From the NCBI GenBank assembly GCA_035367155.1, contig DAOSJI010000002.1, forward strand, positions 38,786 to 102,785: a stretch of DNA of 64,000 nt, read 5' to 3'. The number at the start of each line of letters is the position of its first letter. Position 1 is the first letter of the stretch. The notes beneath the pieces were generated by a model. The model did no database searches. It saw nothing but the letters and a program-made list of their open reading frames with translations, and was not told where the DNA came from. Source of the DNA: Bacilli bacterium (GTDB lineage: Bacteria; Bacillota_I; Bacilli_A; RFN20; CAG-826). Below are positions 14,265 to 63,240 of the stretch, in pieces. The position numbers and the translations under genes were made by a program.

Positions 14265-14268
14265 ATTT

Positions 14269-20811: not shown

Positions 20812-20830
20812 TAATGGAGGAATATACAAT

Positions 20831-21967: not shown

Positions 21968-21991
21968 AGCAAAATAAATCAAAGTCATCTA

Positions 21992-22019: not shown

Positions 22020-22065
22020 GTTAGTTTTGATATAATTAACATAGAAACTTTTATAAGGTTTTTTT

Positions 22066-22270
22066 ATGAAAAAAGAAGATACAAAAACTACTGATTTTAC
22101 ATTAGGTCAATTTCTTAAAAAACATAACTTCGTTGCCTCTGGTGGAGCAGCAAAGTTGTTTTTGTTAGAAAATGACGTTTTAGTTAACGGCGAGCTCGAA
22201 AGAAGACGAGGACGAAAACTAAAAGAAGGTGATGTTGTTTCGGTAGATGGAAAGAAAGTGAGCGTTAAAC

Positions 22271-22299
<29 letters not shown>
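22066..22299 (+). CDS. yaaA: S4-domain RNA-binding protein YaaA
   Basis: 77 aa with an S4-like GGAAKLFLLENDVLVNGELERRRGRKLKEGD. Conserved dnaN-yaaA-recF position. Confidence 0.8.
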
Positions 22300-25332
<3,033 letters not shown>

Positions 25333-25338
25333 GAGGTA

Positions 25339-39830: not shown

Positions 39831-41001
39831 TTTTATTTTTCAAATTCCAACCAAATTATATTTCGGCGAAAACCAAGAATATAAAATAGCTGACATTTTG
39901 CAAGCGCTTAATGTAAAAAGACCTTTAATTTTAATTGGTCAACAATCTGTAATTAGAAGTGGTTTATTAAAAATAGTAACGGATATACTTGATGAAAAGA
40001 AAATCGATTATCAAATATATAAAGGAATAACACCAAATCCTGAAATTTATTTTGTAAGAGAAGGTGTAAAAAAAGCAAGAGAGTTTGAAGCTGATTTAAT
40101 TTTAGCAATAGGAGGCGGATCAGTTATTGATGTAGCAAAAGGAATGGCCTGTTCTTATTTTTATAGTGGAGACCCATTAGATTTATTCATTCATACTTAT
40201 CGACCAACAGTCGCCCTTCCGATTGGAGTGATTTTAACTCATGCTGCTGCCGGAAGTGAAATGTCGACAAGTGCTGTTATAAGTGATAGTAAAAATCATT
40301 TTAAACAAGGATATAATCATCAATTGAATAGACCAACTTTTGCTATTTGCAATCCTAAATATACTTTGACATTGCCACCTCATCAAACCGCGGTTGGTAT
40401 TGTTGACATACTAATGCATACATTGGAAAGATATTTTAATAAAAGCGACGAATATGAAGTAAGCGATTATTTTGCTGAGGGACTTTTAAAAGGTGTTATT
40501 GAAGTTGGATACGCTCTAATGAAAAATCCAAATAATTTAAAAGCTAGAGCAAGTCTAATGTTATTTAGTTCATTATCACATTGTGGAATAACAAGTATTG
40601 GTAAAGAAGGACTTATGCCGATTCACGTTCTTGAACATCCAATAAGTGCATTATATCCATCGGTTGCTCATGGAGCTGGATTAGCAGTTATGTGGGGACC
40701 GTGGGCACGTCATTATGTAGAAAAAGATACTGCAAAATTTGTTTCTTTTGCACAAAACGTGCTTCAAATTAATGAACCAAGTTTAGATTGTCTAGAATTA
40801 GCTAAATTAGGCGTTAAACAACTTGATGATTATTTTAAACATTTAAATGTTAAAATAAGACTTCGCGACTATGGTGTTAAGAAGGATGATTTAGTAACTC
40901 TAGCCAAAATTGCGACCAAAAATAAAAAAAGTTCAATTTATCACTATACAGGGTCTTTAACATACGAAGAAGTGCTTCGTTTGTATGAAGAGGCCTATTA
41001 G
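39823..41001 (+). CDS. Iron-containing (group III) alcohol dehydrogenase
   Basis: GGGSVIDVAKG and conserved His-rich metal-site regions. 392 aa. Confidence 0.88.
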   Translation: MNSFIFQIPTKLYFGENQEYKIADILQALNVKRPLILIGQQSVIRSGLLKIVTDILDEKKIDYQIYKGITPNPEIYFVREGVKKAREFEADLILAIGGGSVIDVAKGMACSYFYSGDPLDLFIHTYRPTVALPIGVILTHAAAGSEMSTSAVISDSKNHFKQGYNHQLNRPTFAICNPKYTLTLPPHQTAVGIVDILMHTLERYFNKSDEYEVSDYFAEGLLKGVIEVGYALMKNPNNLKARASLMLFSSLSHCGITSIGKEGLMPIHVLEHPISALYPSVAHGAGLAVMWGPWARHYVEKDTAKFVSFAQNVLQINEPSLDCLELAKLGVKQLDDYFKHLNVKIRLRDYGVKKDDLVTLAKIATKNKKSSIYHYTGSLTYEEVLRLYEEAY

Positions 41002-42136
41002 AAAGAAGGATATTATGAAAAAAGAAGATGTACTAAGTGTCTTTGTTTACCTAGTAATGTTGCTTATAGCATTATTTATAGGACTTAGAATTATTAGCCC
41101 AGCTATTGGAGATCTTAACTATACACAGAAAGAAGCGTATGGATTTGCTATTCTTACAATCGTCGTTGGTGTTTTAATTAATGCTGTTATTTTCGAAGTT
41201 GGACACATCGTAGGGGCATTAATTGGAGGATATAAAATTTTATCCGTTAACATTTTAGGATTATGCATTTTTAGAGCCAATAAAAAATGGCGAGTGGCCA
41301 TAAAAGGCTTTAATGGTTTAACGGGCGAAACAAAGATTTTTGCAAAAAGAGCAAAAGCGAATCCGCGACTTCACTTATTTGGTCCAATCATTTTGTATTT
41401 AATTGAATTTGCAGCTGCTATTCTACTCTTTGTTTTTTTACCAAAAGAAAATGTTGTTCATCATGCCGCATTAATTGTGGCAGGTATTGGGGCAATGCTT
41501 ATTATTTATAATATTATGCCTTTTAGACTTGATACTCTAACTGATGGCTATTATTTAATGCTTTTAAGTAAGAAAGTAAACATCGAAACTTTTAATGAAT
41601 TAATGCGCATTCAATCTTTAGTTAATGATAAAGAAGAAGTAGGTGATATAAAAGTTTTTGAACAAATTACTACTTTAACTGCGACTGTAAATATGTATAA
41701 ATTTTATGAATGTTTGGATGAAAAAAAATATGATGAAGCTATGAAAATATTAAAACCCATTTTGGAAAACAAACACAAATTAGAACCAGAGATACATGGG
41801 CGAGCACTAGCACAAAAATTGTATTTATTACTGATAACAAAACCAAAAGAAGCTGTGGAACTTTTTTGGAATGATGAGTTAGGTGCAAAAGAAAAGAAAT
41901 TTATTGCTAATGACGTCAGCATGGAATCTTTAAGATCATATTTACTTTTTAACGGACTTGTTAGCAAGAGTGAAAGTGAAAGCGCTTATGTTGTATCACG
42001 TGTTCCTAAAGCATTGAAAACAAGAATGGATGAAAGAAGGAGACAAACAGAAATCGATTTATTCATTCAAACTCTTGAGGTTGTAAGAAAAGAAAATCCT
42101 ACATGGGTTATAGATGATCCAAAAATTAAAAAGTAA
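40985..42136 (+). CDS. Polytopic membrane protein with an M50/site-2-protease-like core and a soluble helical C-terminal domain
   Basis: FEVGH sits where M50 enzymes have HExxH, and NIMPFRLDTLTDG resembles NxxPxxxLDG. An alternative start is MKKEDV at about 41015. Confidence 0.45.
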   Translation: MKRPIRKKDIMKKEDVLSVFVYLVMLLIALFIGLRIISPAIGDLNYTQKEAYGFAILTIVVGVLINAVIFEVGHIVGALIGGYKILSVNILGLCIFRANKKWRVAIKGFNGLTGETKIFAKRAKANPRLHLFGPIILYLIEFAAAILLFVFLPKENVVHHAALIVAGIGAMLIIYNIMPFRLDTLTDGYYLMLLSKKVNIETFNELMRIQSLVNDKEEVGDIKVFEQITTLTATVNMYKFYECLDEKKYDEAMKILKPILENKHKLEPEIHGRALAQKLYLLLITKPKEAVELFWNDELGAKEKKFIANDVSMESLRSYLLFNGLVSKSESESAYVVSRVPKALKTRMDERRRQTEIDLFIQTLEVVRKENPTWVIDDPKIKK

Positions 42137-42217
42137 ATAACATTGCAAAAACACTATTAAAGGTTCAAAAAAGGCATCAAACCCTTTAGAATAAAACACA
42201 AAATGTGAGGTATAAAT

Positions 42218-43339
42218 ATGAAACTAATGACAATTTTAGGAACAAGACCCGAAATCATCCGTCTTTCCGCAATATTAAAAAAAGCTGACAAATATTTTGA
42301 CCATGTTATTGTTCACACAGGCCAAAATTACGATTATGAATTAAATGCCATTTTCTTTGAAGAACTAGAAATTCGTAAACCTGATTATTTTTTGGAGTGT
42401 GTAGGGAAGAATTTAGGAGAAACTTTAGGCGGAATTTTTTCGAAATCGTATGAAATAATTTTAAAAGAAAAACCAGACGCCATCTTAATTTTAGGTGACA
42501 CAAATAGTTCTCTAGCTGCAATTGCTGCAAAAAGATTAAAGGTTCCAGTTTTTCATATGGAAGCCGGAAATCGCTGTTGGGATTGGAATGTACCAGAAAT
42601 GATTAACCGCAAAATAGTTGATCATATAAGTGATATCAATCTACCTTATACTGAGAATAGTCGAAGATATTTAATAAAAGAAGGAATTGATCCAAAAACT
42701 ATTTTCGTTACTGGTTCTCCCCTTTATGAAGTGTTAAACGAATATAAAGAAAAAATAGATAATTGTGATGTTCTTAAAAGATTAAATTTAAAGAAAAAAC
42801 AATATATTTTACTCTCAGCACATCGAGAAGAAAATATTGATATTGAGAAAAATTTCGAAAAATTGATGTGTAGCGTCGAAGAAGTGGCAAAAAAATATGA
42901 TATGCCAATCGTCTATTCAATGCATCCTCGGAGTAAAAAATGGGTTGAAAAAAGAGGACATCAATTTCCTAAAAACGTTATTGCTCATAAACCTTTTGGT
43001 TTAGTTGACTATTGTTCGCTGCAAAAAAACGCTTATTGCGTTTTAAGTGATTCAGGTACATTGAGTGAAGAGAGTGCTATGTTAGATTTTCCGGGGGTTC
43101 TTATTAGAACATCTACTGAAAGGCCGGAAGCATTAGATGAGGGTTCAATCGTTATAGGAGGAATTGAAAAGGGTAATGTAATTGAAGCTCTTGAATTAGC
43201 AGTGAAAATACACAAAGCAGAAGGAAAGCAACCACTTCATCCATCCTATCTTGTAAACAATGTATCAAGCAAGGTTCTTAAAATTATTCAAAGTTATGCA
43301 AAAATCGTCAATATAACGACATGGTTAAAAGACGAATAG
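42218..43339 (+). CDS. wecB: UDP-N-acetylglucosamine 2-epimerase (non-hydrolysing, WecB/Cap5G-like)
   Basis: GTRPEIIRLS, GDTNSSLAA and HMEAGNRCWD motifs. Confidence 0.9.
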   Translation: MKLMTILGTRPEIIRLSAILKKADKYFDHVIVHTGQNYDYELNAIFFEELEIRKPDYFLECVGKNLGETLGGIFSKSYEIILKEKPDAILILGDTNSSLAAIAAKRLKVPVFHMEAGNRCWDWNVPEMINRKIVDHISDINLPYTENSRRYLIKEGIDPKTIFVTGSPLYEVLNEYKEKIDNCDVLKRLNLKKKQYILLSAHREENIDIEKNFEKLMCSVEEVAKKYDMPIVYSMHPRSKKWVEKRGHQFPKNVIAHKPFGLVDYCSLQKNAYCVLSDSGTLSEESAMLDFPGVLIRTSTERPEALDEGSIVIGGIEKGNVIEALELAVKIHKAEGKQPLHPSYLVNNVSSKVLKIIQSYAKIVNITTWLKDE

Positions 43340-43355
43340 AACACGGAGTTAAATT

Positions 43356-44123
43356 ATGTATCGAAACTTTTTTAAACGATTGCTTGATATTATTGCTTCA
43401 TTTATTCTTTTAGTCTTTTTGCTTTTTCCATTTATGATAATAGGTATTATAATTCGGGCTAAATTGGGTGGTCCAGTATTTTTTAAACAGAGACGCCCAG
43501 GGAAAAATAATAGAATATTCCATATGTATAAATTTCGTACAATGACAAACGAGCGTGATGAAAACGGCAATTTATTACCAGACAAAGATAGGTTGACTAA
43601 ACTTGGGAAATTTTTAAGAAAGTCTTCTATTGATGAATTACCTCAAATTATTAACATATTGATTGGTGATATGTCGTTTATAGGACCACGTCCAAAACTA
43701 ATTAAAGATGTAATTTTTATGAAAAACGACGAGTGCTTAATTAGGCAAGCTGTTAGGCCTGGAATTTCAGGGTGGGCACAAATCCATGGAAGAAACGAAT
43801 CCACATGGTATCAAGTACTCGAAAGAGACATATATTATGTAAAACATGTTTCTTTCTTTTTAGATGTTAAAATCTTTTTTAAAACAATAGGAGTTATTCT
43901 TTCTCAAAAAGGAATTAACACTCCTGGAGCGGCAACCCACTTTTTATATGCAGACGTTTTACTTAATGATAAAAAGATAACAAAAGAAGAACATAAACGA
44001 TTAAATGCAGAAGCGATTGAAATAGAAAAAGATTTAAACAAAGTTTATGTTTTTGGTAATAAAACAAAATTTAGTAAAGATCAGCTTAAAAAGGAACCAA
44101 AAATAAAAAAAGATAAATCTTAA
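43356..44123 (+). CDS. Initiating phosphoglycosyl transferase (bacterial sugar transferase, monotopic PglC/WbaP-C type)
   Basis: Re-entrant helix N-terminus, plus KFRTM, DELPQ and RPGISGWAQI. There is also a lysine-rich C-terminal extension. Confidence 0.88.
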   Translation: MYRNFFKRLLDIIASFILLVFLLFPFMIIGIIIRAKLGGPVFFKQRRPGKNNRIFHMYKFRTMTNERDENGNLLPDKDRLTKLGKFLRKSSIDELPQIINILIGDMSFIGPRPKLIKDVIFMKNDECLIRQAVRPGISGWAQIHGRNESTWYQVLERDIYYVKHVSFFLDVKIFFKTIGVILSQKGINTPGAATHFLYADVLLNDKKITKEEHKRLNAEAIEIEKDLNKVYVFGNKTKFSKDQLKKEPKIKKDKS

Positions 44124-44124
44124 C

Positions 44125-45252
44125 ATGAAAACCATTACTTTTTTATTGATGTATTATAAACCCGAAAATCATACAATCAATTATGTTTATAATCCAATAA
44201 TTGATGAGTATTTAAAAAATGGATATCGGGTTAATATCGTTGTCCCTAATCCGACTAGAGGGCTTTCTAGAGCAAAAATCAAAGAATATCGAAAAAAAAC
44301 CGAGGAAAAAATAAAAGACAAATTATTTTTATATCGCGTAAATTGTTTTACGTATAGAAAATATAACAAATTAAACTTATTACTTCGCTACTTGTCTGTT
44401 AGTAATAAGTGTGCGAAAAAGTTAAGAAAAATACATTCTGATATTGTTTTTTTACAAACAAGTCCGCCAATTTTTTATGCATATAAAGCTAGTAAGATAG
44501 CTAAAAGAAAAGGTGTTTCGATTATTTATAATGTTCAAGATATTTATCCAGAAAATATTTTTAAAGAAAATCGCTTACTTTATAAAATAATCAATCACTA
44601 TCAAAAGAAAACCTTAAATAACGCAGATGTTATTTCAACGCTTTCTCAAGATATGAAAAAAACACTTCTCAAAAAAGGTAATTTTGAAAATAAAATCAAA
44701 ATCATTCCTAATCCTATAACATATAAGGTTAAAGAATATAGTGAACAACAACTTAAAGAAACTGCTAATAATTATGGATTTAAGAAAGATAAAATTAATG
44801 TCGTTTATGCAGGAAACATGGGTTATTTGCAAGATATAGATGTAATTATTTCTGCCGCAAAGAAGGTCTTAGAAAAGACAAATAAATATAATTTTATTTT
44901 TATTGGTGAGGGTGCTCAAAAAGAACGATTAAAAAACGAAATAAATGATTTGAAAAATGAAAACATAAATATATATACAATGGCACCTATGGAGGTATCA
45001 CCATATATTTATAAATTGGCTGATTTTAATGTTATAAGTTTGTTACCTAATGTTATTTATACTGCTTGTCCACTTAAAACCGCTATGATAATTGAAGCAA
45101 ACAAAAATGTTATAGCGTGTGTTGATGAAGAATCTACATATATAAAAGAATTGAAAGAAAAAGTTAATGATTTAATAGTAATCCCTAATAGGGATGCAGA
45201 AAAATTAGCGAAAGAATTATTACAAAGGTTAAATAAAAATGAAAAGAAATAA
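44125..45252 (+). CDS. GT4 glycosyltransferase (WbuB/WcaI-like)
   Basis: The N-terminal YYKPEN...IVVPNPTRG pattern is typical of WbuB-type GT4 enzymes. 375 aa. Confidence 0.75.
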   Translation: MKTITFLLMYYKPENHTINYVYNPIIDEYLKNGYRVNIVVPNPTRGLSRAKIKEYRKKTEEKIKDKLFLYRVNCFTYRKYNKLNLLLRYLSVSNKCAKKLRKIHSDIVFLQTSPPIFYAYKASKIAKRKGVSIIYNVQDIYPENIFKENRLLYKIINHYQKKTLNNADVISTLSQDMKKTLLKKGNFENKIKIIPNPITYKVKEYSEQQLKETANNYGFKKDKINVVYAGNMGYLQDIDVIISAAKKVLEKTNKYNFIFIGEGAQKERLKNEINDLKNENINIYTMAPMEVSPYIYKLADFNVISLLPNVIYTACPLKTAMIIEANKNVIACVDEESTYIKELKEKVNDLIVIPNRDAEKLAKELLQRLNKNEKK

Positions 45253-46051
45253 AGAAGTACCTTATGGCACTCTTATTGTTAAAGAGTTTACGACAAAGCT
45301 TTTAAAAATAGGGGATCGTAAAATACGGATTTGGTTGCCTGATGGGTATGATGAAAACTATGAAACAGGATATCCGGTTTTATATATGCATGACGGGCAA
45401 AATTTGTTTGAATCTAGCACCTCTTATGCTGGTGAATGGTTTATTGATGAATCGCTTTCAAAGTTAAGTAAGAAAAATAAAAATTTCAAAATGATTGTTG
45501 TAGGAATCGATAATTCTCCTTTACGAATTAATGAAATGAGTTTTCTTTCAATAAAAAAGAGTTGTTATCGCTTTCCTAATAAAAGTTATGAAGGTCAAGA
45601 TTATGCAAAATTTATTGTAGAAGAAGTAAAAGAATATATTGATAAAAATTATAATACGAACCCGAAAATAAATTTAATAGGTGGATCCTCAATGGGAGGA
45701 ATCATCTCCTTTTTTATGGCGTTGGCTTATCCTGACGTTTTTGGGTACGCTTTGTGTTTTACACCAGCTGGAATGTTACATTATCAAAACGAATTAAAAA
45801 AATGGTGCAAAAACGCCATTAAAAACGCAAAAAAGCTACCAAAATTATATTTTATGGTAGGGAAAGGCGATAGGCTTGAACAAATAATTTTTAAATTTAC
45901 TGAGAAATTAATTCCCTTTTTATCTAAACAAGGTTATTCAAAAGAAAATTTGAGGTATGATGTGATAGAAGAAGCTATACATAATGAAAAATCATGGGCA
46001 AAGATTTTTCCGACTGCTATTAAATGGCTTAATATAAGGGAAACGAGTTAA
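45239..46051 (+). CDS. Alpha/beta-hydrolase esterase (putative-esterase family)
   Basis: PVLYMHDGQN and the nucleophile elbow GGSSMGG. Overlaps the upstream GT gene. Confidence 0.7.
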   Translation: MKRNKEVPYGTLIVKEFTTKLLKIGDRKIRIWLPDGYDENYETGYPVLYMHDGQNLFESSTSYAGEWFIDESLSKLSKKNKNFKMIVVGIDNSPLRINEMSFLSIKKSCYRFPNKSYEGQDYAKFIVEEVKEYIDKNYNTNPKINLIGGSSMGGIISFFMALAYPDVFGYALCFTPAGMLHYQNELKKWCKNAIKNAKKLPKLYFMVGKGDRLEQIIFKFTEKLIPFLSKQGYSKENLRYDVIEEAIHNEKSWAKIFPTAIKWLNIRETS

Positions 46052-46097
46052 TTAATATTATGATATAATTAACTAAAGGTGCTTATAGGAGATTACT

Positions 46098-48770
46098 GTG
46101 AACATATTATTAGTTAATGCTAATAACCTTCTTGGAAGAAAGTTTGCCCAAAGATTAAAAAAAGATGGGCAACAATTTTTTCAATACGGAAAAGATGACG
46201 TTAGTAATGAGTCCTTGGAAGAATTGATTGGAAAAAGCAATTTTATTTTTCATTTCGGAAACGAAGACTCTGATCGTAGAAAAGAACAACTTTATCATTC
46301 AAATGTTGTCATTACTAAACAAATAATTGAAACAATAGAAAAGCATAATTTCAAAATACCTATTGTTTTTATATCAACTGCTATAGATGGTCCTAATGAT
46401 TTTGTTGAAGTGAAAAAAGAAGCTGAAACGGAGTTAAAAACATATCAAAAAAGGAGCAAAAATCCAGTTTTTGTTTTAAAAGTTTCAAATGTTTATGGTG
46501 ATGAAAAATGTAATAATTACTATTCGCAAATTTATCATTTGATGAATTTATTAATGGTACAACAACGGCATTCTTCATTTGAAAGTGATGAAATTATCCG
46601 TGTTGTTGAGGTTGAACCATTTGTAGATTTTCTAATAACACTGCTAAAAAAAGAATCATGGAATCAATTAAACCCTCCTCATGTTGATGAATTTAAAATT
46701 AAAGACCTTGTAAAAACAATTAATGAATTTCGAAGGCTTTCTTATGTTCGTAGAACTCCAATTATTGAGACATCAAAAGATTTAGCAGCATATAAGATTT
46801 TTAGATCCTATATATCTCCAAATGCGCCCAAAATAGAATTAAGCGAAAAAGTTAAACCTAATATAGCAATAGAAAAACCAAAAGAAGTTAAAGAAACAGT
46901 TCAACAAAATGACAATGATGTTATGAGAACTAAACTTGATAAGGGATTTATTTATATTGCTGAGTGTGGGATGGAATCTAGCAAAGTATTGGAATCCTTT
47001 AAAAAGAGATTAGAAAATGAAAGCAGTAGATGTTTGTTCGTTGATAAAACCTGGTATGAAACAAATTACCAAAAGTATGTAACGAACATCCAAGCTATTA
47101 CAGAAAACTATGACTTTGTATTAATTGATGGTGTTGGATTAAGTGAAATAAGGGTTCAAATTCTTGCAAACGCATTAGATTATGGCTTTAGGAATAAAAC
47201 GGTTGTAGTTGTTGCCTCAAGAGATAATTTTAATCTTCAGTTAATTTTCATGAAATTGAAAAAACTTCATTTTTCAAAAATTGATGATGAAACAAGAGAA
47301 TCTAGAAAAGGATTTACCGAATATCTTAATAATTTTAAGTCGCTCTTTAAAAAAGAAAAATCTGTAGAAAAGAAAAAAGCAATAATTAAAGAAGAACCCA
47401 AGACGGCCAAAGTTGACATTATGACCGATACAGAAATTAATCAAGCAACTATTGGCAAAAGAAAAGTTTCTAAATTTTTCCTTTTACGTGAATTGTTCTT
47501 TATTGTTTTTATGATTTTGAGTTTAATTAGCAGTAATTTGACTTTTCAAAACGACACTAATACAAATATAAACGCGACAATTACTGCAGCGCATTATCAA
47601 GCAAATCGTGCAGAATCACGATATATCCATGGGTTTTTGAGCTCTAATTATCCTGGTTCAACTGTGGGCGCCAGCAATTTAGAAAACGCCTTCCAATATG
47701 GTAAGGATATTGAAAATGATCAAATTAGTTTTTATGTTACTTGTGTCCAAGGACCAGTGACAGGCGCCAATAGAAGTAGATTTAATATTATTTTTTCTGG
47801 TGGAAATACTATTGCAAACGCTATTGCTTTAAAAGATTATTCTTCAGATGGTCAACTGCTTAAGTATATGAGAGTTGAGCAATATTTATTAGGAGATGAA
47901 ATAGATAAAACTTCGACTAACGAAGAAGCAACGCCTATTTATATTTCTTCAACTTTAGCGGATATTATTATTGAATCTAATGAATTTATAAATAATTACA
48001 GCGACATAATTAATACAACGATAACTCGAACTTATGGTTTAATTAGTGAACAACTAGAAATTAAAAATATTATTTATACAAGCGATAAAAAAGAAAATTA
48101 TGCTGAAAGAGAACACTCAAATCCATACAGTGGAATTGACGAAGGGCTTGGCAAACACCTTAATAAAGTTATTGGACAACCAATTATTTTTCTTTTAGAT
48201 GCTGAACAATTAAATGGTTTTGAGACAAGAATTGAATTTGATGCTTTTCCTAAGGGTAAAGGAATAAAAAAACTGCTTGATAATTATTATAAGGATTTCC
48301 AAGTAATTGAAGGTGTTAACTATACAAAAAATATAAAATTCGGAATTTACAACGATGGAAAATATATTGAAGATGACTTTATATTAAATGATGTTAATGC
48401 ATATTATCAAACCAAAACATCAAGTATTAATTTTACGATGATAATATTTGCGATTTTTTCAATTTTATTTGCTTTTGTGGCAGCTAATATCTTATTAACT
48501 AATTTGAAAGAAGCTCTCAAATATAGCAATAGCAGAGTCCATGTCGTTTTAGGGCTAATTTTTACAATAGTACCAATAATTATTGTTAATTTTGCGATTG
48601 CTTTATACAAAGGTTTATCAAATTATAGTGTTTCAGCAATCGCATTACAAAATACATTTGGTATTATCGCTAACATTGTAATAACACTAGTTATGGCAGG
48701 GTTAACATTGTTCTTTTTCTTTAGTTTAAGAAAAGAAAATTATAGGAAGTCTGAAAGAGAGGCTAAATAA
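46098..48770 (+). CDS. 890-aa chimeric protein: degenerate SDR/CapF-like N-domain, degenerate BY-kinase/ParA-like P-loop domain, then a TM-ectodomain-3TM (FtsX-like topology) module
   Basis: GTG start after a TAGGAG RBS. The Rossmann position reads VNANNLLG. The Walker A position reads AECGMESSKV, and DFVLIDGVGL is Walker-B-like. Hydrophobic helices lie at about residues 470-490 and in the last 130 residues. Confidence 0.5.
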   Translation: MNILLVNANNLLGRKFAQRLKKDGQQFFQYGKDDVSNESLEELIGKSNFIFHFGNEDSDRRKEQLYHSNVVITKQIIETIEKHNFKIPIVFISTAIDGPNDFVEVKKEAETELKTYQKRSKNPVFVLKVSNVYGDEKCNNYYSQIYHLMNLLMVQQRHSSFESDEIIRVVEVEPFVDFLITLLKKESWNQLNPPHVDEFKIKDLVKTINEFRRLSYVRRTPIIETSKDLAAYKIFRSYISPNAPKIELSEKVKPNIAIEKPKEVKETVQQNDNDVMRTKLDKGFIYIAECGMESSKVLESFKKRLENESSRCLFVDKTWYETNYQKYVTNIQAITENYDFVLIDGVGLSEIRVQILANALDYGFRNKTVVVVASRDNFNLQLIFMKLKKLHFSKIDDETRESRKGFTEYLNNFKSLFKKEKSVEKKKAIIKEEPKTAKVDIMTDTEINQATIGKRKVSKFFLLRELFFIVFMILSLISSNLTFQNDTNTNINATITAAHYQANRAESRYIHGFLSSNYPGSTVGASNLENAFQYGKDIENDQISFYVTCVQGPVTGANRSRFNIIFSGGNTIANAIALKDYSSDGQLLKYMRVEQYLLGDEIDKTSTNEEATPIYISSTLADIIIESNEFINNYSDIINTTITRTYGLISEQLEIKNIIYTSDKKENYAEREHSNPYSGIDEGLGKHLNKVIGQPIIFLLDAEQLNGFETRIEFDAFPKGKGIKKLLDNYYKDFQVIEGVNYTKNIKFGIYNDGKYIEDDFILNDVNAYYQTKTSSINFTMIIFAIFSILFAFVAANILLTNLKEALKYSNSRVHVVLGLIFTIVPIIIVNFAIALYKGLSNYSVSAIALQNTFGIIANIVITLVMAGLTLFFFFSLRKENYRKSEREAK

Positions 48771-48771
48771 A

Positions 48772-49788
48772 ATGGAAGATATGAAAGTATTAATTTATTT
48801 TGAAGGCGAAAATATTATTAAAAAAAGCGGAATTGGTCGAGCAATGCGTCACCAAATGGAGGCACTAACATCAGCGAAGGTTAATTTTACAACAAATAAA
48901 AAAGACACCTTTAATTTAGCACACATTAATACTTATGGATTTAATAGCAAACGCCTTCTTAGAAAATGTAAACGAAAAAATATTCCAGTAATTGTACATG
49001 GTCATTCTACTTTTGAAGATTTTCGTAATTCATATCGAGCCTGGCAATTCCTTGCTCTTTTTTACAATAGTTGGCTCAAATATATGTATAGTAGAGCAGA
49101 TTTAATTGTCACCCCAACCTTGTACAGCGAGAATCTTATTAAAAGCTATGGTTATGATGTACCAGTTACTAATTTATCAAATGGATTAAATGTAGAAGAA
49201 TATAAACCTAGCGAAGATAAAGTAAAACAATTTAAAGATCATTTTAAAATTACAGATGAGAAAGTCATTATCGGTATTGGCTTTTTATTTGAACGAAAAG
49301 GTATTCGTGATTTTATTGAAGTTGCTAGGGCATTCCCCGATATTAAATTTATTTGGTTTGGTCATCTCTCCTGGTTACTAAGACAATCAAAAGTAAATAA
49401 AGCGATAAGAAGAAAGCCAGACAATGTAATTCTTCCCGGCTATATTGCAAACGATATTATTAAGGGAGCGATGCAATATGCTGAAATGCTCTTTTTCCCA
49501 AGCAATGAAGAAACTGAAGGAATTGTCGTTTTAGAAGGGCTCGCTAGTAAGATTCCTGTTCTTGTTAGAGACATCGGAGTGTATGAAGATTGGTTAAAAG
49601 ATGGTGAAAATGCGTATAAAGCACGTAATAATCAAGAATTTATTGAAAAAATTAAATATATAATACATAATGATAATTCCCAAGTAATAAAAAACGGTTA
49701 TCAGACGGCAATGGACCGTGATTTAAGTATTATCGGGCAAAAACTAAAGAAAATATACGAAGGAGTGCGAAAAAAGCATGTCAAATAA
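48772..49788 (+). CDS. GT4 glycosyltransferase (diacylglycerol-glycosyltransferase-like)
   Basis: Intact E-x7-E motif ETEGIVVLE and KSGIGRAM near the N-terminus. The start may be the MKVLIYF ATG at 48781. Confidence 0.8.
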   Translation: MEDMKVLIYFEGENIIKKSGIGRAMRHQMEALTSAKVNFTTNKKDTFNLAHINTYGFNSKRLLRKCKRKNIPVIVHGHSTFEDFRNSYRAWQFLALFYNSWLKYMYSRADLIVTPTLYSENLIKSYGYDVPVTNLSNGLNVEEYKPSEDKVKQFKDHFKITDEKVIIGIGFLFERKGIRDFIEVARAFPDIKFIWFGHLSWLLRQSKVNKAIRRKPDNVILPGYIANDIIKGAMQYAEMLFFPSNEETEGIVVLEGLASKIPVLVRDIGVYEDWLKDGENAYKARNNQEFIEKIKYIIHNDNSQVIKNGYQTAMDRDLSIIGQKLKKIYEGVRKKHVK

Positions 49789-50320
49789 AAAACTTGAAGA
49801 TTATTATGTTTTACTGGCACTTGATGAAGCTACGGCGATGCGCGTAAGAACAATTAAAACTTTGCAAAAAGATTTTAATATGCCTTATCGTCTTTTTTAT
49901 CCGCACCTTACTATTGCTCACTATCCTCTTGCTGAAAAGAAAAAACTAGTCAAAACGATTCGAAAATTATCTAGGAAATACAACCCATTTTCTTTAAACT
50001 TTGTTGATGTTAAATTAATTGACAAGGCACTTATTGCAATAGAAGTAGATAACAATAAAACTCTTGCTGAACTATATCAAAGAGTTCACGATAGTTTGCC
50101 CTATGTTGCAGACAAATGGACATCACCAAGTGAAACTCATTATTTGCCCCATGTTAGTCTGTATTTCAATAATGAAATTGATTTAACAGAAATGCATCAA
50201 CATTTTAAAAAAGGTTTTACTCCATTTAAAGGTGAAGTAGAAGCTCTTGAACTTTCTCTTTTTGACGGCAGGAGTTATACAATAACGCATCGATTTCCTT
50301 TAAAGAAACGCTGGTTTTAA
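49778..50320 (+). CDS. 2H phosphoesterase superfamily protein (LigT / 2',5'-RNA ligase-like)
   Basis: Two H-x-T/S-x motifs, PHLTIAH and PHVSLYF, with appropriate spacing. 180 aa. Confidence 0.7.
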   Translation: MSNKKLEDYYVLLALDEATAMRVRTIKTLQKDFNMPYRLFYPHLTIAHYPLAEKKKLVKTIRKLSRKYNPFSLNFVDVKLIDKALIAIEVDNNKTLAELYQRVHDSLPYVADKWTSPSETHYLPHVSLYFNNEIDLTEMHQHFKKGFTPFKGEVEALELSLFDGRSYTITHRFPLKKRWF

Positions 50321-56130: not shown

Positions 56131-56511
56131 ATGGACAAAAAAGAAACAAATTTAATTATTGTTATTATCAATTCAGGATTTGTAGATCTTGTTATGGATG
56201 CCGCAAAAGCAGCTGGAGCCGGTGGAGGAACGGTCCTTCACGGCAGAGGAACTGGAAACAAAGAAATTGAAAAACTTTTTGGTATTACAATTAGTCCAAA
56301 TAAAGAAATTGTCTTAATCGTAGTTCCTAATCAAATTAAAGATAAGGTTATGAAAGCTATTTATAATAATGCTGGCCTAGATACAGAAGGGCAAGGTATT
56401 ATCTTTTCACTACCGCTTGATCGAGTTGTAGGAGTAAATTTCAATCATTTTAACAAAAATGCTGAAAACAACAATACAACTGATGATACAAAAAATGGTA
56501 ACCAAGAGTAA
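56131..56511 (+). CDS. PII-like signal-transduction protein paralog 2
   Basis: LIIVIINSGFVDLVMDAAKAAGAGGGTVLHGRGTG is typical of the PII-like proteins that follow DUF1538 genes. Confidence 0.6.
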   Translation: MDKKETNLIIVIINSGFVDLVMDAAKAAGAGGGTVLHGRGTGNKEIEKLFGITISPNKEIVLIVVPNQIKDKVMKAIYNNAGLDTEGQGIIFSLPLDRVVGVNFNHFNKNAENNNTTDDTKNGNQE

Positions 56512-59500
56512 AAGAACAATCATTTTTAATTATCTTCATGTAACGCTATTAGCGCTTTTTTATCTTGTAACTTTGATGGTTGCTCCAAGAGGGCAATATG
56601 ATAAAGGAGTAGCGCCTTTACTTTGGTTTATATTCATTACAGTCATCCTTGTAAGTTTAATAACTATAAACATAATATTAATCATTAGAAAAAAACAAGA
56701 CAAAAAACGCATATTTGCAATTTTAACCACGTTATTGTCGCTTTTTCCTTTCTACCAATCATTGCGTAGACTTGCCAGTTTACTAAGTCCAGTAAATAGT
56801 TTATACACTGAATTTCCTGTTCTTGCAATTTTATTTATTTTAATTTTTCTTCTTTATTTAATATGTGCTGTAACATTTTTGATAAATCAATTAACCATAA
56901 TAGATAAAGAATATGAAACCGTAAAAGAAGAAAAATTAAACTTGCAAAAAAGATGGACTATTTTTCTTGAAAGATTTGGTAGAACTGAAAATCCTTTATA
57001 TTTTTATATAATTTCATTATTTATAATAGCGATTTTATTTTTCTCATCAAGTTTATTTAAAGAGTCTTTTACAATTCCTTTTGGTGGCGATTTTACTCAA
57101 CAACAGCTTCAATTTTATATTAATGGTTATGATGATTACTGGTCCTTTTTTAAGACAGGACAGTTTCCTTTATGGGACACAAATACTTTTCTTGGTGTAA
57201 ATAACATTGGATCAAATGCATTTTACTATGCACTAAATCCATTTTTTCTACCAATCTTAGTATTCCCTCGCTCCTTAGTTCCACAGGGGATCTCGGTACT
57301 AATGATTACAAAATTTGTTTTGGCCGCTTTATCTATGAGAGCTTATTTAAAATACATGGGAATAAAAGAAACTACAGCGAGACTTTTTGCATTAATGTAC
57401 GCATTTTGCGGGTGGAATGTCTATTATTTATGGTTTAACCACTTTATGGAAGTTACTGTAATGTTTCCTCTTGTATTTTTAGGAATTGAAAAAGTATTTA
57501 AAGAACGTCAACCATTTTTCTTAGCACTAAGCTTAGCAATAATGGGTTTAGCAAATTATTTCTTCTTAGTTACCACATGTATGGTCGGAGTTTTATATGC
57601 TGGATTTCGTTATATTCAACTATTTAGTAAGTTTCCCAATAATAGAGTTCGCCTTGAAGTCATCGGGATCGGGTTTTTAGGATTTTTATTTGGTATTCTT
57701 GGATCTGGCATTGCTTTTTTACCAGGATTAGATGTAGCAAGAAATAGTGATCGCGTTACAAATGCAACATATTTAGATAATCTTAAATCAACATTTAAAG
57801 CAAAAGATTGGAAAACACTTGTAGCATATTTAACTAAATGGGAAACACAAAATGAGTCTTTTGAATATAAAAAGTTTTATCCCCTCATTTCTTTTTTATT
57901 CCCAACTATATCAGATCGCAGTGTTACGTTACTGAATAGAAGTTCCTACGATAACACTATTTCTAGTTTATTTACTTTTACGCCTATAACACTTCTATTA
58001 ATTCCATCTTTGATTCATTCTTTTAAGAAAAGAAAGGCAAGTCCTTTTATAGCGCTAGGTTTGTTCCTTTTAGCTATTTTTACTCCTTTCGCGTATAACC
58101 TATTTCATGGTTTTACAAAAGAATATGGAAGGTGGCAGCTGTTCCCTGTGTTTTTACTTATTACTTATGTAGCGTCATCATATGAAGAAAGAAAAGAGTT
58201 TAAACGATGGTATTTTGATGTCTCATTTGTTGTAATTGCTTTACTTATGGGTATTACTTATTTATGGGCGTTTAATTATCAAAACAAGAATACATTTACA
58301 TTTTTATTTCAACGAGAATATGTGGCATATTATCAATTTGGGGTCCTTTTTGTCGTATATTTAACGTTTAGATATATGTATGAAAAGAAAGTAGTAAGTC
58401 CAATTTTATTTGCTCTAACAACAATTGAAGTGGTAATAATGGGTGTCTTGACACTTAATTTCCACGGGACGATATCATATCAAAATCATGTTTTCGGGGG
58501 TCAAATTAACTATAAACACGATGAAGAAGTTACTAGAAAAATTAAATCTTTAGATGGCTCCTATTATAGGGTTTATTCTACTAGTGCTAGAAAAGGAAGA
58601 GATAATCTCCCGATGGCTCTTGATTACAATGGTGTCACGACTTTTCACTCGTTGTATAATTTTGAATTAATGGACTTTAATTATTGGAGTAAGATTAACT
58701 ATAACTATTTAGGTTGGTCACTTGGTGTACACGAAAAAAGACCATTCTTGGATCAATTTCTAAATATAAAATATTATGTTATGAAACCAAGTGAAGCAAA
58801 TCCAACAATTGAAGAAAAAGACAATGTCATTTTACGCCCAAATGTTCCTCTAACACATATCTTATATGAAGAAATGTCTACTGAACATCGATTAGTATAT
58901 GGGAACGAAAATCATTTTAATACTGGTTTTGCAGTCGACAACATCATGTCATATGAACAATTTGATGGCGAAAAAATTGTCGATGTTGTGCGCAATTCAG
59001 GAAGAACAGGAATTATTAAAATTGAAGAATTATACTTAAAGTCTGCTATTCTTTCTTTTGATGATTTTAACGAAGTAAAAAAGAATCACCCTACTTTTAA
59101 TGAAATAGATTTTAAATATTATCAAATGAACGCTCATCAATATTCAAATAATTTAAGTAGCGATTTTGGTTTTAGTAAAACTATATATTATTGTAGTAAG
59201 GAATTTCCGATTACAAAACTTAATTCTAATGAATTGAATTTAAGATCTTGTACAGTCTTTAATGTTGGATCTAAACCACATGTAGGGATAGTTTTTGAAA
59301 GAAATAATGGCGAACCATTTTTATTTAACAGCGGATCTATAATTTTTCAATATCCAATAGCAGCAAAAGCCAACATTTATTTACTTGGTACTGATGGATC
59401 AGTTGTTACATATGATAATCACACATCTCCAAGTGGATCAACAACCTATAAAGTTTTACGTGGCTTTTCTGCAAGTAAAGCGATTAAACGGATAATTATT

Positions 59501-59935
59501 ATTCCGCAAGAAACATTCAAAGATTATTCGACCACGTATATTTTTGCTTATGATGAGTCAGTTCAAAATGAAATAATAGCGAATACAAAGCGATATCCAT
59601 TAGAAAACCTTAAATGGAAAAGAAACGAAATAACATTTACGACCAACTTTGAAGATGAAAAATTCGTTATTACAACAATTCCATATGACAAAGGGTGGCA
59701 TGCTGGCTATGTTAATAAAGTAACAAAAGAAAATAGTCATATTAAAGTGTATAAAACTCATGGTGGTTTTGTTGGATTTGTAGCACCAAAAGGTGACAAT
59801 CAATATTCTCTTGTTTTTGTTCCAGAATATTTAACAAGTGGTTTATTAGCTAGTTTCGGCGGGTTCTATTTTGCAATAGTCGGCTTAGTCTATCTTCGAT
59901 ATAAAAAGAAAAAGCAGCAAGTTAAAGCTGCTTGA
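56459..59935 (+). CDS. YfhO-family (GT-C-like) giant membrane protein with an extra N-terminal 4-TM module
   Basis: The FGGDFTQQQLQFY...PLWD region is typical of the YfhO start but occurs about 200 residues in. The real start is probably an internal Met (for example 56495), because the track start overlaps the upstream gene by 53 nt. Confidence 0.7.
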   Translation: MLKTTIQLMIQKMVTKSKRTIIFNYLHVTLLALFYLVTLMVAPRGQYDKGVAPLLWFIFITVILVSLITINIILIIRKKQDKKRIFAILTTLLSLFPFYQSLRRLASLLSPVNSLYTEFPVLAILFILIFLLYLICAVTFLINQLTIIDKEYETVKEEKLNLQKRWTIFLERFGRTENPLYFYIISLFIIAILFFSSSLFKESFTIPFGGDFTQQQLQFYINGYDDYWSFFKTGQFPLWDTNTFLGVNNIGSNAFYYALNPFFLPILVFPRSLVPQGISVLMITKFVLAALSMRAYLKYMGIKETTARLFALMYAFCGWNVYYLWFNHFMEVTVMFPLVFLGIEKVFKERQPFFLALSLAIMGLANYFFLVTTCMVGVLYAGFRYIQLFSKFPNNRVRLEVIGIGFLGFLFGILGSGIAFLPGLDVARNSDRVTNATYLDNLKSTFKAKDWKTLVAYLTKWETQNESFEYKKFYPLISFLFPTISDRSVTLLNRSSYDNTISSLFTFTPITLLLIPSLIHSFKKRKASPFIALGLFLLAIFTPFAYNLFHGFTKEYGRWQLFPVFLLITYVASSYEERKEFKRWYFDVSFVVIALLMGITYLWAFNYQNKNTFTFLFQREYVAYYQFGVLFVVYLTFRYMYEKKVVSPILFALTTIEVVIMGVLTLNFHGTISYQNHVFGGQINYKHDEEVTRKIKSLDGSYYRVYSTSARKGRDNLPMALDYNGVTTFHSLYNFELMDFNYWSKINYNYLGWSLGVHEKRPFLDQFLNIKYYVMKPSEANPTIEEKDNVILRPNVPLTHILYEEMSTEHRLVYGNENHFNTGFAVDNIMSYEQFDGEKIVDVVRNSGRTGIIKIEELYLKSAILSFDDFNEVKKNHPTFNEIDFKYYQMNAHQYSNNLSSDFGFSKTIYYCSKEFPITKLNSNELNLRSCTVFNVGSKPHVGIVFERNNGEPFLFNSGSIIFQYPIAAKANIYLLGTDGSVVTYDNHTSPSGSTTYKVLRGFSASKAIKRIIIIPQETFKDYSTTYIFAYDESVQNEIIANTKRYPLENLKWKRNEITFTTNFEDEKFVITTIPYDKGWHAGYVNKVTKENSHIKVYKTHGGFVGFVAPKGDNQYSLVFVPEYLTSGLLASFGGFYFAIVGLVYLRYKKKKQQVKAA

Positions 59936-59953: not shown

Positions 59954-60799
59954 TTAATTATCAGTCAAAAATGCACGATATAGTGCGTTTTTGCTAACGT
60001 TATTTAGGAGACTTACAATTTTACAAGCCTCTTTTAATGAATAGTTTTCTTTTAGAAGAAGGGAGACTTGTTTTTTTGCATCTTCGAATTTTTTATCTAT
60101 ATTTGAACTTGTATTTCCTTCAACTACAATTACAATTTCTCCTTTTATAGATGTATAGTCAAAAGTTAAAAATTCTTCTAATGTCCCGTATAAATATTCT
60201 TCGTTTATTTTCGTTAATTCTCTAGCCAATGTAACTTTTCTATTACCAAGGATATTATATAAATAATTCATTGTTCTTTGTATTCTATGAGGAGATTCAT
60301 AAAAGATTAATGATTCTTTTCTTTCTCTAAGGAGACACTCCTCTTCAATTGATAAATTTAATTTTGAAGGTAAAAATCCATGAAAATAAAAAGAAGAAGT
60401 CGAGATTCCACTTCCAATAAGTGCTGGTAAAAGAGCACTAGGCCCATTAACTACACTAATATGTATGTCATTATTCAATAATTCGTTTACTAATATTGCT
60501 CCTGGATCACTAATAAGCGGATAACCTGCATCAGAAACATAAGCACCAGACAGCCCTTTTTTAATTTGATTAATTATTTCTAAAGCTTTTTCTTTCTCAT
60601 TATGCTCAAAAAGACTAATTAAAGGTTTTGAAATTTTATAATGAGAAAGAAGAACATTAGTTACACGAGTGTCTTCGCAAGCAATAAAATCTACGTTATT
60701 TAAAATTTCGATTGCCCGATTAGAAAATTCGCTTAAGTTTCCTATTGGAGTAGCAACAAAATAAAAAGGTATCTTTGTGAAAGATTTATTCCTCTTCAT
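59954..60799 (-). CDS. rsmI: 16S rRNA (cytidine1402-2'-O)-methyltransferase
   Basis: FYFVATPIGNLSEFSNRAIEILNNVDFIACEDTRVT. Confidence 0.93.
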   Translation of the reverse strand: MKRNKSFTKIPFYFVATPIGNLSEFSNRAIEILNNVDFIACEDTRVTNVLLSHYKISKPLISLFEHNEKEKALEIINQIKKGLSGAYVSDAGYPLISDPGAILVNELLNNDIHISVVNGPSALLPALIGSGISTSSFYFHGFLPSKLNLSIEEECLLRERKESLIFYESPHRIQRTMNYLYNILGNRKVTLARELTKINEEYLYGTLEEFLTFDYTSIKGEIVIVVEGNTSSNIDKKFEDAKKQVSLLLKENYSLKEACKIVSLLNNVSKNALYRAFLTDN

Positions 60800-61619
60800 T
60801 AGGATTTTTCCACTTCCCTTTTATTTCATCCAAACTGACAATAATACTGTCATTTTCATTGGTCAATTTAATTTCTTCACTAATAACATTGAAAGAATTT
60901 ACGAAATATTTCTCCCCTCGTAACTTAATAGCCTGTCCAATGGGAGGAAATTTCTTATTTGCTTCTTTATAATAATCATCCTCATACGCTAAACAACACA
61001 TTAATCTAGAGCATTGCCCGGTTAGTTTTGGGATGTTCAGTGTTAAATTTTGATTTTTAGCACGATTAATTGATATGCCATCAAAATCACGTAAAAACGA
61101 ATTACAACATAACGGAAGGCCACAGACCCCAACACCACCGACGAGCTTCGCCTTATCACGGCTTCCAATTTGTCTAAGCTCTATGCGAGTTCTTAGTTGT
61201 GAAGCTAGTATTTTTAAAAGTTCTCTAAAATCAACGCGTTGATCTGCAACATAGGTAAATATTATTTTATCGCGATCGAAAGTGTATTCTGCACTAATTA
61301 AATGCATATCAAGCTTTAAATACTCTATTTGTTTTGCGCAAAAAGCAAGTGCTTCTTGGGCGTCATTTAAATTTTGATAATGACGTGCTGTTTCATTTTT
61401 GTCCGCTTTTTTTATAATAGGTTTAAGTGCTAAGTCACTTTTATATTCGCTCATTGGTAATGGCTCACGAACAACAACACCTACCTCGGTACCTCTAATG
61501 GTTTCAACAATTACATATTCACCATTTTTAAATTCGTCAGTAGGACATGAAAAATAATATGGTTTTGAGCCTCTACTAAAGGCGATTGATAAGAAAAATT
61601 GATTTATATTATCTGACAT
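60786..61619 (-). CDS. ricT: PSP1-domain protein YaaT/RicT
   Basis: Cys-rich PSP1 region GVCGLPLCCNSFL...CSRLMCCL. Conserved holB-yaaT position. Confidence 0.88.
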   Translation of the reverse strand: MSDNINQFFLSIAFSRGSKPYYFSCPTDEFKNGEYVIVETIRGTEVGVVVREPLPMSEYKSDLALKPIIKKADKNETARHYQNLNDAQEALAFCAKQIEYLKLDMHLISAEYTFDRDKIIFTYVADQRVDFRELLKILASQLRTRIELRQIGSRDKAKLVGGVGVCGLPLCCNSFLRDFDGISINRAKNQNLTLNIPKLTGQCSRLMCCLAYEDDYYKEANKKFPPIGQAIKLRGEKYFVNSFNVISEEIKLTNENDSIIVSLDEIKGKWKNPNEEE

Positions 61620-63229: not shown

Positions 63230-63240
63230 AATAAATCCCC

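Follow-up and report, generated by a model that had tools for sequence, protein, structure and literature searches.

A membrane protein of Erysipelotrichaceae-like bacteria with a degenerate CapF-type reductase domain, encoded next to a diacylglycerol glucosyltransferase

We analyzed a 64,000-nucleotide (nt) stretch of a Bacilli bacterium genome, the window (assembly GCA_035367155.1, contig DAOSJI010000002.1, forward-strand positions 38,786 to 102,785), and in particular a gene at 46098..48770 (+) that encodes a protein of 890 amino acids (aa). In a single chain, the protein combines two cytoplasmic domains, four transmembrane (TM) helices, and a 295-aa domain outside the cell (the ectodomain). 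The N-terminal cytoplasmic domain is homologous to the short-chain dehydrogenase/reductase (SDR) domain of the polysaccharide enzyme CapF and appears to be catalytically dead. The remainder, which we call the core, matches no curated family. The gene lies in a glycan operon, directly before the gene for a diacylglycerol glucosyltransferase. We tentatively suggest that the protein organizes the assembly of an envelope glycoconjugate.

Results

The gene is intact and its modules are constrained

The open reading frame (ORF) was present exactly as described in a first-pass annotation, which had been made from the letters of the DNA, and every motif quoted there was found at its place in the translation. 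The ORF comprises 890 codons and a stop codon. It starts with GTG, and the ribosome-binding site AGGAG can be read 6 nt 5' of this start (46087..46091, +). An ortholog of 895 aa with 82% identity (P0002) is a single unbroken ORF in five independent assemblies, namely, three Logan runs, one NCBI metagenome-assembled genome (Erysipelotrichaceae bacterium AS23ysBPME_272), and one JGI metagenome contig. All five loci (L001, L002, L003, L006, and L007) share the GTG start and the ribosome-binding site. The ortholog occurs in samples from anaerobic digesters, ERR2672658 among them. A 99% copy of the 890-aa protein (P0001) comes from yet another assembly. Therefore, the ORF is no assembly chimera, and the single-ORF status proposed for it holds.

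Two further copies, P0003 in the European Nucleotide Archive (ENA) and L012 in Logan (ERR3662325), are frameshifted or truncated, and both come from low-coverage assemblies. The frameshift in P0003 shortens the ORF and lies within the ectodomain, not at a domain boundary. These defects are probably sequencing errors; the alternative is pseudogenization in some strains.

We calculated the ratio of nonsynonymous to synonymous substitution (dN/dS) by the Nei-Gojobori method for the window gene versus that of L001. The value for the whole gene was 0.10. By module, it was 0.11 for the SDR domain, 0.07 for the middle domain, 0.08 for the ectodomain, and 0.05 for TM2 to TM4, and it ranged from 0.2 to 0.5 in the two linkers. 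All modules are under purifying selection, and the low values therefore indicate that the modules are real, constrained domains. Two genes of the same operon gave similar values (0.11 for a glycosyltransferase of family 4 [GT4] and 0.08 for an esterase). Those for WecB, the phosphoglycosyl transferase, and the glycolipid synthase, at 0.02 to 0.03, evolve more slowly than the 890-aa gene.

The N-terminal module is a degenerate CapF-type SDR domain

Residues 1 to 243 (46098..46826, +) form a CapF/WbcJ-type SDR domain. They match positions 1 to 246 of the 372 positions of NCBIfam NF047837 with an E value of 2.3e-17. The score is 62.9 bits against an equivalog cutoff of 500 bits, so the match means homology at the domain level only. 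Matches to Staphylococcus aureus Cap5F (PDB 2zkl and 3st7) span the same residues, with an E value of 4e-6 for 2zkl, and the Pfam families NAD_binding_4 and Epimerase match the module weakly. The first-pass annotation had read residues 1 to 230 as an extended, CapF-like SDR with a degenerate glycine-rich loop and YxxxK motif, and the alignment with Cap5F bears out both parts of that reading. The glycine-rich loop GxxGxxG is lost. Residues 6 to 13 read VNANNLLG, and NANNLLG stands opposite GAKGFVG of Cap5F. The catalytic YxxxK is lost as well. Residues 102 to 106 read FVEVK opposite YGESK, with the Tyr replaced by Phe and the Lys kept. Without the residues for the usual NAD(P)H binding and sugar reduction, the module is, judging from its sequence, catalytically dead. 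Both degenerate motifs are identical in the 82% ortholog. Therefore, the module is likely to be a pseudo-reductase of long standing that selection has maintained, and not the remains of a recent decay.

CapF consists of two domains. The N-terminal SDR domain uses NADPH, and the first reaction takes place in a C-terminal zinc-binding cupin domain (PMC5393024). The 890-aa protein lacks this cupin half, as seen from the end of the NF047837 match at position 246.

The SDR domain is followed by a poorly conserved linker, residues 244 to 280 (46827..46937, +), which is 54% identical to that of the ortholog and has a dN/dS of 0.5. Met276 in this linker aligns with the start codons of two SDR-less relatives, P0006 and P0007. 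We considered a separately translated short isoform that begins at Met276 and dropped it, because no ribosome-binding site precedes this codon.

The middle domain is a small alpha/beta domain

Residues 281 to 415 (46938..47342, +) were delineated as a small cytoplasmic alpha/beta domain with an AlphaFold2 (AF2) model, Foldseek, and phmmer. The motifs of interest are FIYIAECGMESSKV (residues 284 to 297), CLFVDKTW (312 to 319), YDFVLIDGVGL (338 to 348), and VVVVASRD (369 to 376). By eye, they had been aligned with bacterial tyrosine kinases (BY-kinases) and ParA-type P-loop proteins. Pfam, NCBIfam, and the PDB returned nothing significant for the domain. The matches below threshold were to dethiobiotin synthetase BioD (E = 0.046) and the MinD-like FlhG (E = 1) with phmmer, and to NTPase_1 in Pfam (E = 0.06). 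They agree with one another, yet they are limited to the Walker-B-like strand YDFVLIDGVG and the sequence after it. When we aligned the domain with a small SIMIBI profile of Escherichia coli MinD, Wzc, Etk, and BioD, hhalign gave a probability of 5% over 12 columns at the Walker B. This test is weak and has low power, because the BioD control reached just 10.7%.

The AF2 model of residues 278 to 420 had a mean predicted local distance difference test (pLDDT) score of 60.5, with values of 59 to 83 over the first 100 residues, and it showed a beta-alpha-beta pattern. With this model (pLDDT, 60), Foldseek found no PDB match below an E value of 0.05; the best was 0.056. P-loop kinases and ATPases nevertheless prevailed among the first entries: type II thymidine kinases stood at the top of the list (probability of at most 0.95, TM-score of 0.36 to 0.42), followed by RuvB, RFC, Mpa, and SufC. 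Neither a receiver nor a flavodoxin fold was among the top 50 Foldseek matches, and Pfam gave no hint of one, so we rejected a CheY-like receiver as a reading of this domain.

A Walker B-type hydrophobic strand with its Asp is present: in the alignments, YDFVLIDGVG stands opposite the Walker B region of MinD, Wzc, Etk, and BioD. The motif is so short that it could have arisen by chance. The Walker A motif GxxxxGK[ST] is absent. As the first-pass annotation had pointed out, the Gly-Lys-Ser/Thr residues are lacking; the loop after strand 1 reads CGMESSKV, which does contain a Lys. None of the family members examined (the window protein, P0002, P0006, and P0007) has a Walker A. Of the Walker A' motif (hhhhDxDxR), CLFVDKTWYE retains the first Asp alone, and the C terminus, RKENYRKSEREAK, contains one Tyr instead of a tyrosine cluster. 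On these three motifs, membership of the domain in the BY-kinases fails. The model and the sub-threshold matches are plausibly explained by a compact alpha/beta domain of the P-loop NTPase type. The BY-kinase/ParA reading has weak support, from the Walker-B-like strand and from profile and fold matches that all stay below threshold. The broader view of the protein as a set of inactivated enzyme domains fits the SDR module. For the middle domain, an inactivated kinase is a presumed ancestry and a hypothesis, because no family member has a Walker A that would prove an active ancestor.

A juxtamembrane linker rich in Lys and Glu, residues 416 to 458 (47343..47471, +), connects the middle domain to the membrane. 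It is 66% identical to that of the ortholog (dN/dS, 0.20), and the positively charged KRKVSK directly precedes TM1.

The membrane module resembles FtsX and MacB in topology

TM1 spans residues 459 to 483 (47472..47546, +), with a hydropathy peak of 2.26 and 96% identity to the ortholog. The ectodomain, residues 484 to 778 (47547..48431, +), is a mixed alpha/beta domain that aligns with P0006 and P0007. It is rich in Asn, Ile, Thr, and Tyr and has a net charge of -13. We found no internal repeat in it and no match in Pfam or the PDB. Three closely spaced TM helices follow at residues 779 to 876 (48432..48725, +), which are 94% identical to those of the ortholog. On the Kyte-Doolittle scale, TM2 to TM4 lie at about residues 780 to 800, 816 to 836, and 848 to 875. 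Clusters of Lys and Arg before TM1, in the TM2-TM3 loop, and at the C terminus fit a topology in which both termini are inside and residues 484 to 778 are outside.

The TM bundle is the most conserved part of the family. Its helices carry the conserved polar residues N797, N831, Q851, N852, and T853. The family signature YKGLSNYSVSAIALQNTFG, residues 837 to 855 (48606..48662, +), covers the TM3-TM4 loop on the outer side of the membrane and the first part of TM4. This signature (SNYSV...QNTFG) is kept in P0002, P0005, and P0007 and partly in P0006. Residues 244 to 890 matched nothing in Pfam, NCBIfam, or the PDB and no catalytic or transporter family, and a profile of the family found no match in the PDB.

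The first-pass annotation had assigned the C-terminal half to an FtsX-like module of the FtsX/MacB permeases. The order of TM1, large ectodomain, and three TM helices is as it had described. However, homology searches did not support the assignment. The isolated ectodomain, the TM2-TM4 segment, P0006, and P0007 gave no match to FtsX (PF02687) or MacB_PCD (PF12704) at E values up to 10. We also compared a family profile from TM1 to the end with an FtsX-type profile by hhalign, with leave-one-out controls of E. coli MacB, LolC, LolE, and FtsX and the MacB-like protein encoded in the window. The true members scored 94 to 98%, whereas our family scored 0.2%. The score against the window's MacB-like protein, including its nucleotide-binding domain (NBD), was again 0.2%, with no match. 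The cytoplasmic TM2-TM3 loop has about 15 aa, compared with about 20 to 35 aa in the MacB, LolC, LolE, and FtsX controls. Neither the 890-aa protein nor the operon (40985-50320) contains an ABC ATPase (ABC_tran). The likeness to FtsX and MacB thus appears to be purely topological.

The MacB-like protein, encoded at 32294-34852 (+), is the sole ABC protein of the window and lies 11 kb upstream of the gene. It is a complete ABC_tran-FtsX fusion of 852 aa, in which an ectodomain of about 440 residues separates TM1 from TM2.

Foldseek was also run with a low-confidence AF2 model of the full-length protein. It listed no MacB or FtsX match, and the global TM-score was about 0.1. The listed structures were tandem alpha/beta ATPases and, with high local probability, CapF (3st7) and SDR subunits of complex I (6x89 and 7aqr). 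We did not use this result for the membrane part.

The family is nearly orphan

When we searched 1.84 billion representative proteins exhaustively with residues 240 to 890 by phmmer, five matches came up. Apart from the 890-aa protein itself, these are the fragments P0004 and P0005 from close relatives and, at full length, the distant relatives P0006 (597 aa, E = 2e-7) and P0007 (557 aa, E = 9e-5). Both of the latter share with the 890-aa protein the topology of one plus three TM helices, which follow a cytoplasmic N terminus of 150 to 180 residues, and neither has an SDR domain. Therefore, the SDR fusion appears to be specific to one lineage. The middle domain is colinear with the N terminus of P0007 in MAFFT and BLASTP alignments, a match that is not significant on its own (E = 0.81). 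A third lineage is represented by a partial copy (L011/P0005), in which TM2 to TM4 are 69% identical.

Word-indexed searches with the full protein, a four-sequence profile, or P0007 returned only P0001 to P0003 or the query. Genome and metagenome scans gave nothing beyond further copies of the 82% ortholog, and tblastn against plasmids and phages and scans with PADLOC and PHROGs gave nothing relevant. P0007 is about 22% identical to the family member in the window, and housekeeping proteins of the same two genomes are 45 to 73% identical. From these searches, the family is nearly orphan and confined to a few uncultured Erysipelotrichaceae-like bacteria. The first-pass annotation knew of no described protein with this architecture. 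With five matches in the protein set and none for residues 244 to 890 in the curated collections, we agree that the architecture is undescribed and that the core module belongs to no curated family.

The gene is paired with a diacylglycerol glucosyltransferase gene in a glycan operon

The genes upstream of the 890-aa gene, all on the forward strand and assigned with Pfam and NCBIfam, encode the UDP-GlcNAc 2-epimerase WecB (42218-43339), a small polyprenyl-phosphate sugar-phosphotransferase (the phosphoglycosyl transferase, 43356-44123), a WcaI-like GT4 (44125-45252), and the esterase (45239-46051). The gene downstream (48772..49788, +) encodes an IagA/BgsA/Dgs-type diacylglycerol glucosyltransferase, whose scores of 438 bits with NCBIfam NF053513 (cutoff, 460) and 435 bits with NF049987 (cutoff, 500) fall just short of the equivalog cutoffs. 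A 2H phosphoesterase gene follows in the same run. The gaps between the operon genes range from -14 to +46 nt, and the gene order is kept in the species of the 82% ortholog (L001 and L002).

The diacylglycerol glucosyltransferase gene starts one base past the stop codon of the 890-aa ORF. The same gene pair occurs in L001, L002, and L011. In L011, the partial copy overlaps the start of the glycolipid synthase gene, whose product is 58% identical to that in the window. From this arrangement, the 890-aa gene is predicted to be translationally coupled to the diacylglycerol glucosyltransferase gene in three lineages. Because the downstream enzyme is a diacylglycerol glucosyltransferase, the cluster mixes undecaprenyl-linked with glycolipid chemistry, and the context of the 890-aa protein shifts toward a glycolipid or lipoglycan. 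The cluster had been described as lacking a flippase. In line with this, the Pfam scan, over those ORFs of the window that it covered, found no Wzx/MOP, ABC-2, or Wzy protein.

The context of P0006 is a second polysaccharide cluster. Its gene has a weakly Wzx-like gene on one side and an overlapping Wzy_C gene on the other. Genes for GT4s, GalE, and UDP-glucose dehydrogenase belong to the same cluster, which has no recognizable co-polymerase. Neighbors of the Wzx/Wzy pathway are thus found for P0006 and are absent in the window and around P0007. An IS30-family transposase gene lies at the edge of the P0006 cluster (L004, 19934-20806, +).

A gene for a 383-aa protein heads the glycan run (40985-42136, +). 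About five TM helices make up the N-terminal part of this protein, the C-terminal half is soluble, and neither Pfam nor NCBIfam gave a match. It is 93% identical to its counterpart in L001 with a dN/dS of 0.04 and is more conserved than the 890-aa protein. By eye, FEVGH stands at the place of the HExxH of an M50-type protease.

Other features of the window

The genes dnaA, dnaN, recF, gyrB, and gyrA lie at 19332-27888 (+), with jag, yidC, and mnmE to their left on the opposite strand, and the GC skew changes sign near 20 kb. The window therefore spans the chromosomal replication origin. Two genes to the right of this run, at 27898-28917 (+; 339 aa) and 30898-32196 (+; 432 aa), encode proteins with no Pfam match at E values up to 1e-4. 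A lipid and acyl-carrier run at 8281-15699 (-) encodes a phosphopantetheinyl transferase, two AMP-binding enzymes (one carries a PP-binding domain), two acyltransferases, and a 640-aa MFS_2 protein. The YfhO-family protein encoded at 56459-59935 (+) is, at 1158 aa, unusually long. Its best stretch of the Pfam YfhO match begins at residue 462 (profile position 240), and much of its N-terminal part may lie outside the YfhO domain match.

A TP_methylase-PSP1-holB-tmk-recR block occupies 59954-63840 (-) of the window, 11 kb from the 890-aa gene, and the same block, at 2336-8326 of L005, adjoins the gene for P0007. We considered the shared block as synteny and rejected it, because P0007 lies on the other side of the block and the arrangement differs.

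Discussion

We suggest, with low confidence, that the 890-aa protein is a non-catalytic, membrane-embedded organizer of the assembly of a cell-envelope glycoconjugate, that is, of a lipid-linked glycan or glycolipid. It may be analogous to a polysaccharide co-polymerase or accessory protein in its role and not in its ancestry, an analogy that we propose just as cautiously. The first-pass annotation had put the protein forward as a candidate non-canonical export or chain-control component, a role that is likewise a hypothesis. In this scenario, the dead SDR domain, and perhaps the alpha/beta domain too, would be docking or nucleotide-sugar-sensing modules. As docking modules, they would hold soluble sugar-nucleotide enzymes and glycosyltransferases at the membrane. 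The conserved TM bundle, with the polar SNYSV...QNTFG at the outer leaflet, would bind the lipid-linked product, either the glycolipid or the undecaprenyl-linked glycan. On the outside, the ectodomain would act on this product or hand it over, whether for chain control, transfer, or retention. The SDR domain would be a lineage-specific addition to an older core that consists of the alpha/beta domain, TM1, the ectodomain, and the three TM helices.

Across lineages, TM2 to TM4 are more conserved (69% identity) than the adjacent true enzyme (58% identity). This suggests a specific job in the membrane, rather than that of a passive anchor. The operon partners WecB, phosphoglycosyl transferase, and GT4 and the conserved pairing with the glycolipid synthase also count for an organizer. 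The Wzx/Wzy cluster of P0006, with no co-polymerase of its own, offers a niche for a chain-control protein, and for this reason we favor an organizer over a flippase. However, several findings weigh against an organizer. The 890-aa protein has no co-polymerase (Wzz/GNVR) profile or motif, and the window encodes no Wzy polymerase that could be its partner. P0007 is encoded among housekeeping genes (dnaX and prfA), and its neighborhood contains no glycan genes. With just three independent genomic contexts, the argument from gene neighborhood is thin. The full-length AF2 model, finally, which drew on five sequences, has a pLDDT of 37.6, with 30 to 45 across residues 444 to 890, too low to yield a structure for the membrane part and the ectodomain.

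The protein can be compared with several known systems. Its SDR domain aligns over the full length with that of CapF/WbjC/FnlB/WbcJ, the UDP-2-acetamido-2,6-dideoxy-beta-L-arabino-hexul-4-ose reductase; the two have the initial MNI and the Lys of YxxxK in common, and both are encoded in surface-polysaccharide loci with a UDP-GlcNAc 2-epimerase. However, in place of the zinc-binding cupin the 890-aa protein has about 650 unrelated residues that include four TM helices, and the operon encodes no CapE/FnlA partner.

With the type 2 polysaccharide co-polymerases, which include a tyrosine kinase (PCP-2; Wzc/Etk, CapA-CapB, and CpsC-CpsD), the protein shares one large outside domain between TM helices, a cytoplasmic alpha/beta domain with a Walker-B-like hhhhD strand, and a place in a glycan cluster, beside a phosphoglycosyl transferase in the window or a Wzy in the case of P0006. 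It differs from them in that the cytoplasmic domain is N-terminal, which reverses the order, and in having one plus three TM helices instead of one plus one. Pfam gives no Wzz/GNVR match, the segment NAYYQTKTSSINF before TM2 has no Pro/Gly, and the Walker A, Walker A', and C-terminal tyrosine cluster are absent. The AF2 secondary structure of the ectodomain, at low confidence, contains no long helical hairpin.

By description, the protein can also be likened to LtaA, encoded beside YpfP in S. aureus, and to LafC, encoded beside LafA and LafB in Listeria. Like them, it is a polytopic protein outside any enzymatic family, and its gene is predicted to be co-transcribed with that of a diacylglycerol glycosyltransferase. 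LtaA is an MFS transporter with 12 TM helices, and family scans of the 890-aa protein gave no match to MFS or any other transporter family. To our knowledge, descriptions of LtaA and LafC include neither a large ectodomain nor pseudo-enzyme domains in the cytoplasm. For Listeria LafC, eight TM helices are predicted (PMC2764115).

A function like that of LtaA beside YpfP would make the protein a translocase or flippase for the operon's glycolipid or undecaprenyl-linked oligosaccharide. The four-helix bundle, probably oligomeric, would then form the path through the membrane, and the cytoplasmic domains would take the lipid-linked sugar from the glycosyltransferases. We consider this unlikely. 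It retains some weight for two reasons, the lack of a flippase in the operon and the coupling with the glycolipid synthase gene. Wzx, ABC-2, and any other recognizable flippase are absent from the operon and from the scanned ORFs of the window, the coupling extends over three lineages, and the TM helices are both the most conserved segments and the carriers of the polar residues N797, N831, Q851, N852, and T853. However, a lipid flippase would be expected to have more than four TM helices, flipping needs no large ectodomain, and the protein has no similarity to the MOP, MFS, GtrA, or ABC families. Moreover, the P0006 cluster already has a Wzx-like protein, and the window organism may have a flippase gene at another place on its chromosome or elsewhere outside the window. 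The same operon could also hold the gene by chance. In that case, the protein would be a lineage-specific envelope protein unrelated to glycan synthesis, with a structural, receptor, or sensor role, and the SDR domain would be a stable cytoplasmic plug. The family is nearly orphan and fast evolving, as seen from the 22% identity of P0007 against 45 to 73% for housekeeping proteins. P0007 has no glycan neighbors, and an acidic ectodomain rich in Asn, Thr, and Tyr is typical of surface-exposed proteins. Chance placement is harder to reconcile with the tight coupling to the glycolipid synthase in three lineages and with the second, independent glycan context at P0006. In addition, the fused pseudo-enzyme derives from a nucleotide-sugar reductase of surface-polysaccharide pathways, and it is itself constrained (dN/dS, 0.11). 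We regard a role outside glycan synthesis as rather improbable.

Very unlikely, in our judgment, is a highly diverged mechanotransmission protein of the FtsX/MacB type (type VII ABC), with the middle domain as the relic of an ATPase and an ectodomain that performs mechanical work on an extracellular partner. The parts do follow the MacB order, with a cytoplasmic alpha/beta domain, TM1, a large extracytoplasmic domain, three clustered TM helices, and both termini inside, as in the MacB, FtsX, and LolC/LolE proteins. P-loop ATPases are in the Foldseek list of the middle domain, with SufC at a low rank. Residues 612 to 735 also have a likeness, seen by eye only and confirmed by no test, to the MacB periplasmic pattern "LA..L...GD.I.h....V.GI". 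However, no profile similarity was found. Pfam gave no FtsX or MacB_PCD match, the hhalign score stayed at 0.2% next to controls at 94 to 98%, and the MacB-like protein of the window did not match even with its NBD. An ABC NBD has about 220 aa, whereas the middle domain has about 135 aa and neither an ABC signature nor a Walker A. The TM2-TM3 loop is shorter than in the controls, the C-terminal tail motif of FtsX was not seen, and the operon encodes no ABC ATPase of the FtsE kind.

An organizer of glycan or glycolipid assembly is the reading that we prefer. A bolder one is that the core has a novel fold and represents a previously undescribed class of envelope-glycan machinery of Bacillota with a thin wall or none. 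It would be either a co-polymerase analog or a new kind of translocase for lipid-linked sugars or glycolipids, and in one lineage it would have recruited a dead CapF domain as a nucleotide-sugar sensor or enzyme dock. We think this doubtful. On present evidence, the 890-aa protein is an orphan accessory protein within a known kind of pathway. Its fusion with a pseudo-SDR domain and its highly conserved, unclassifiable membrane core set it apart, although no finding so far points to an unusual mechanism. For now it joins the many orphan membrane proteins known from uncultured bacteria, and its value is that of a well-defined target with known boundaries, partners, and controls. If it organizes or exports a glycolipid-anchored polymer, it would be a clue to how Erysipelotrichaceae and their Mollicutes-like relatives build surface lipoglycans when their cluster lacks the usual Wzx/Wzy/PCP or ABC components. 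In addition, the protein would clearly exemplify how a nucleotide-sugar enzyme domain can be re-used as a non-catalytic module of a membrane protein.

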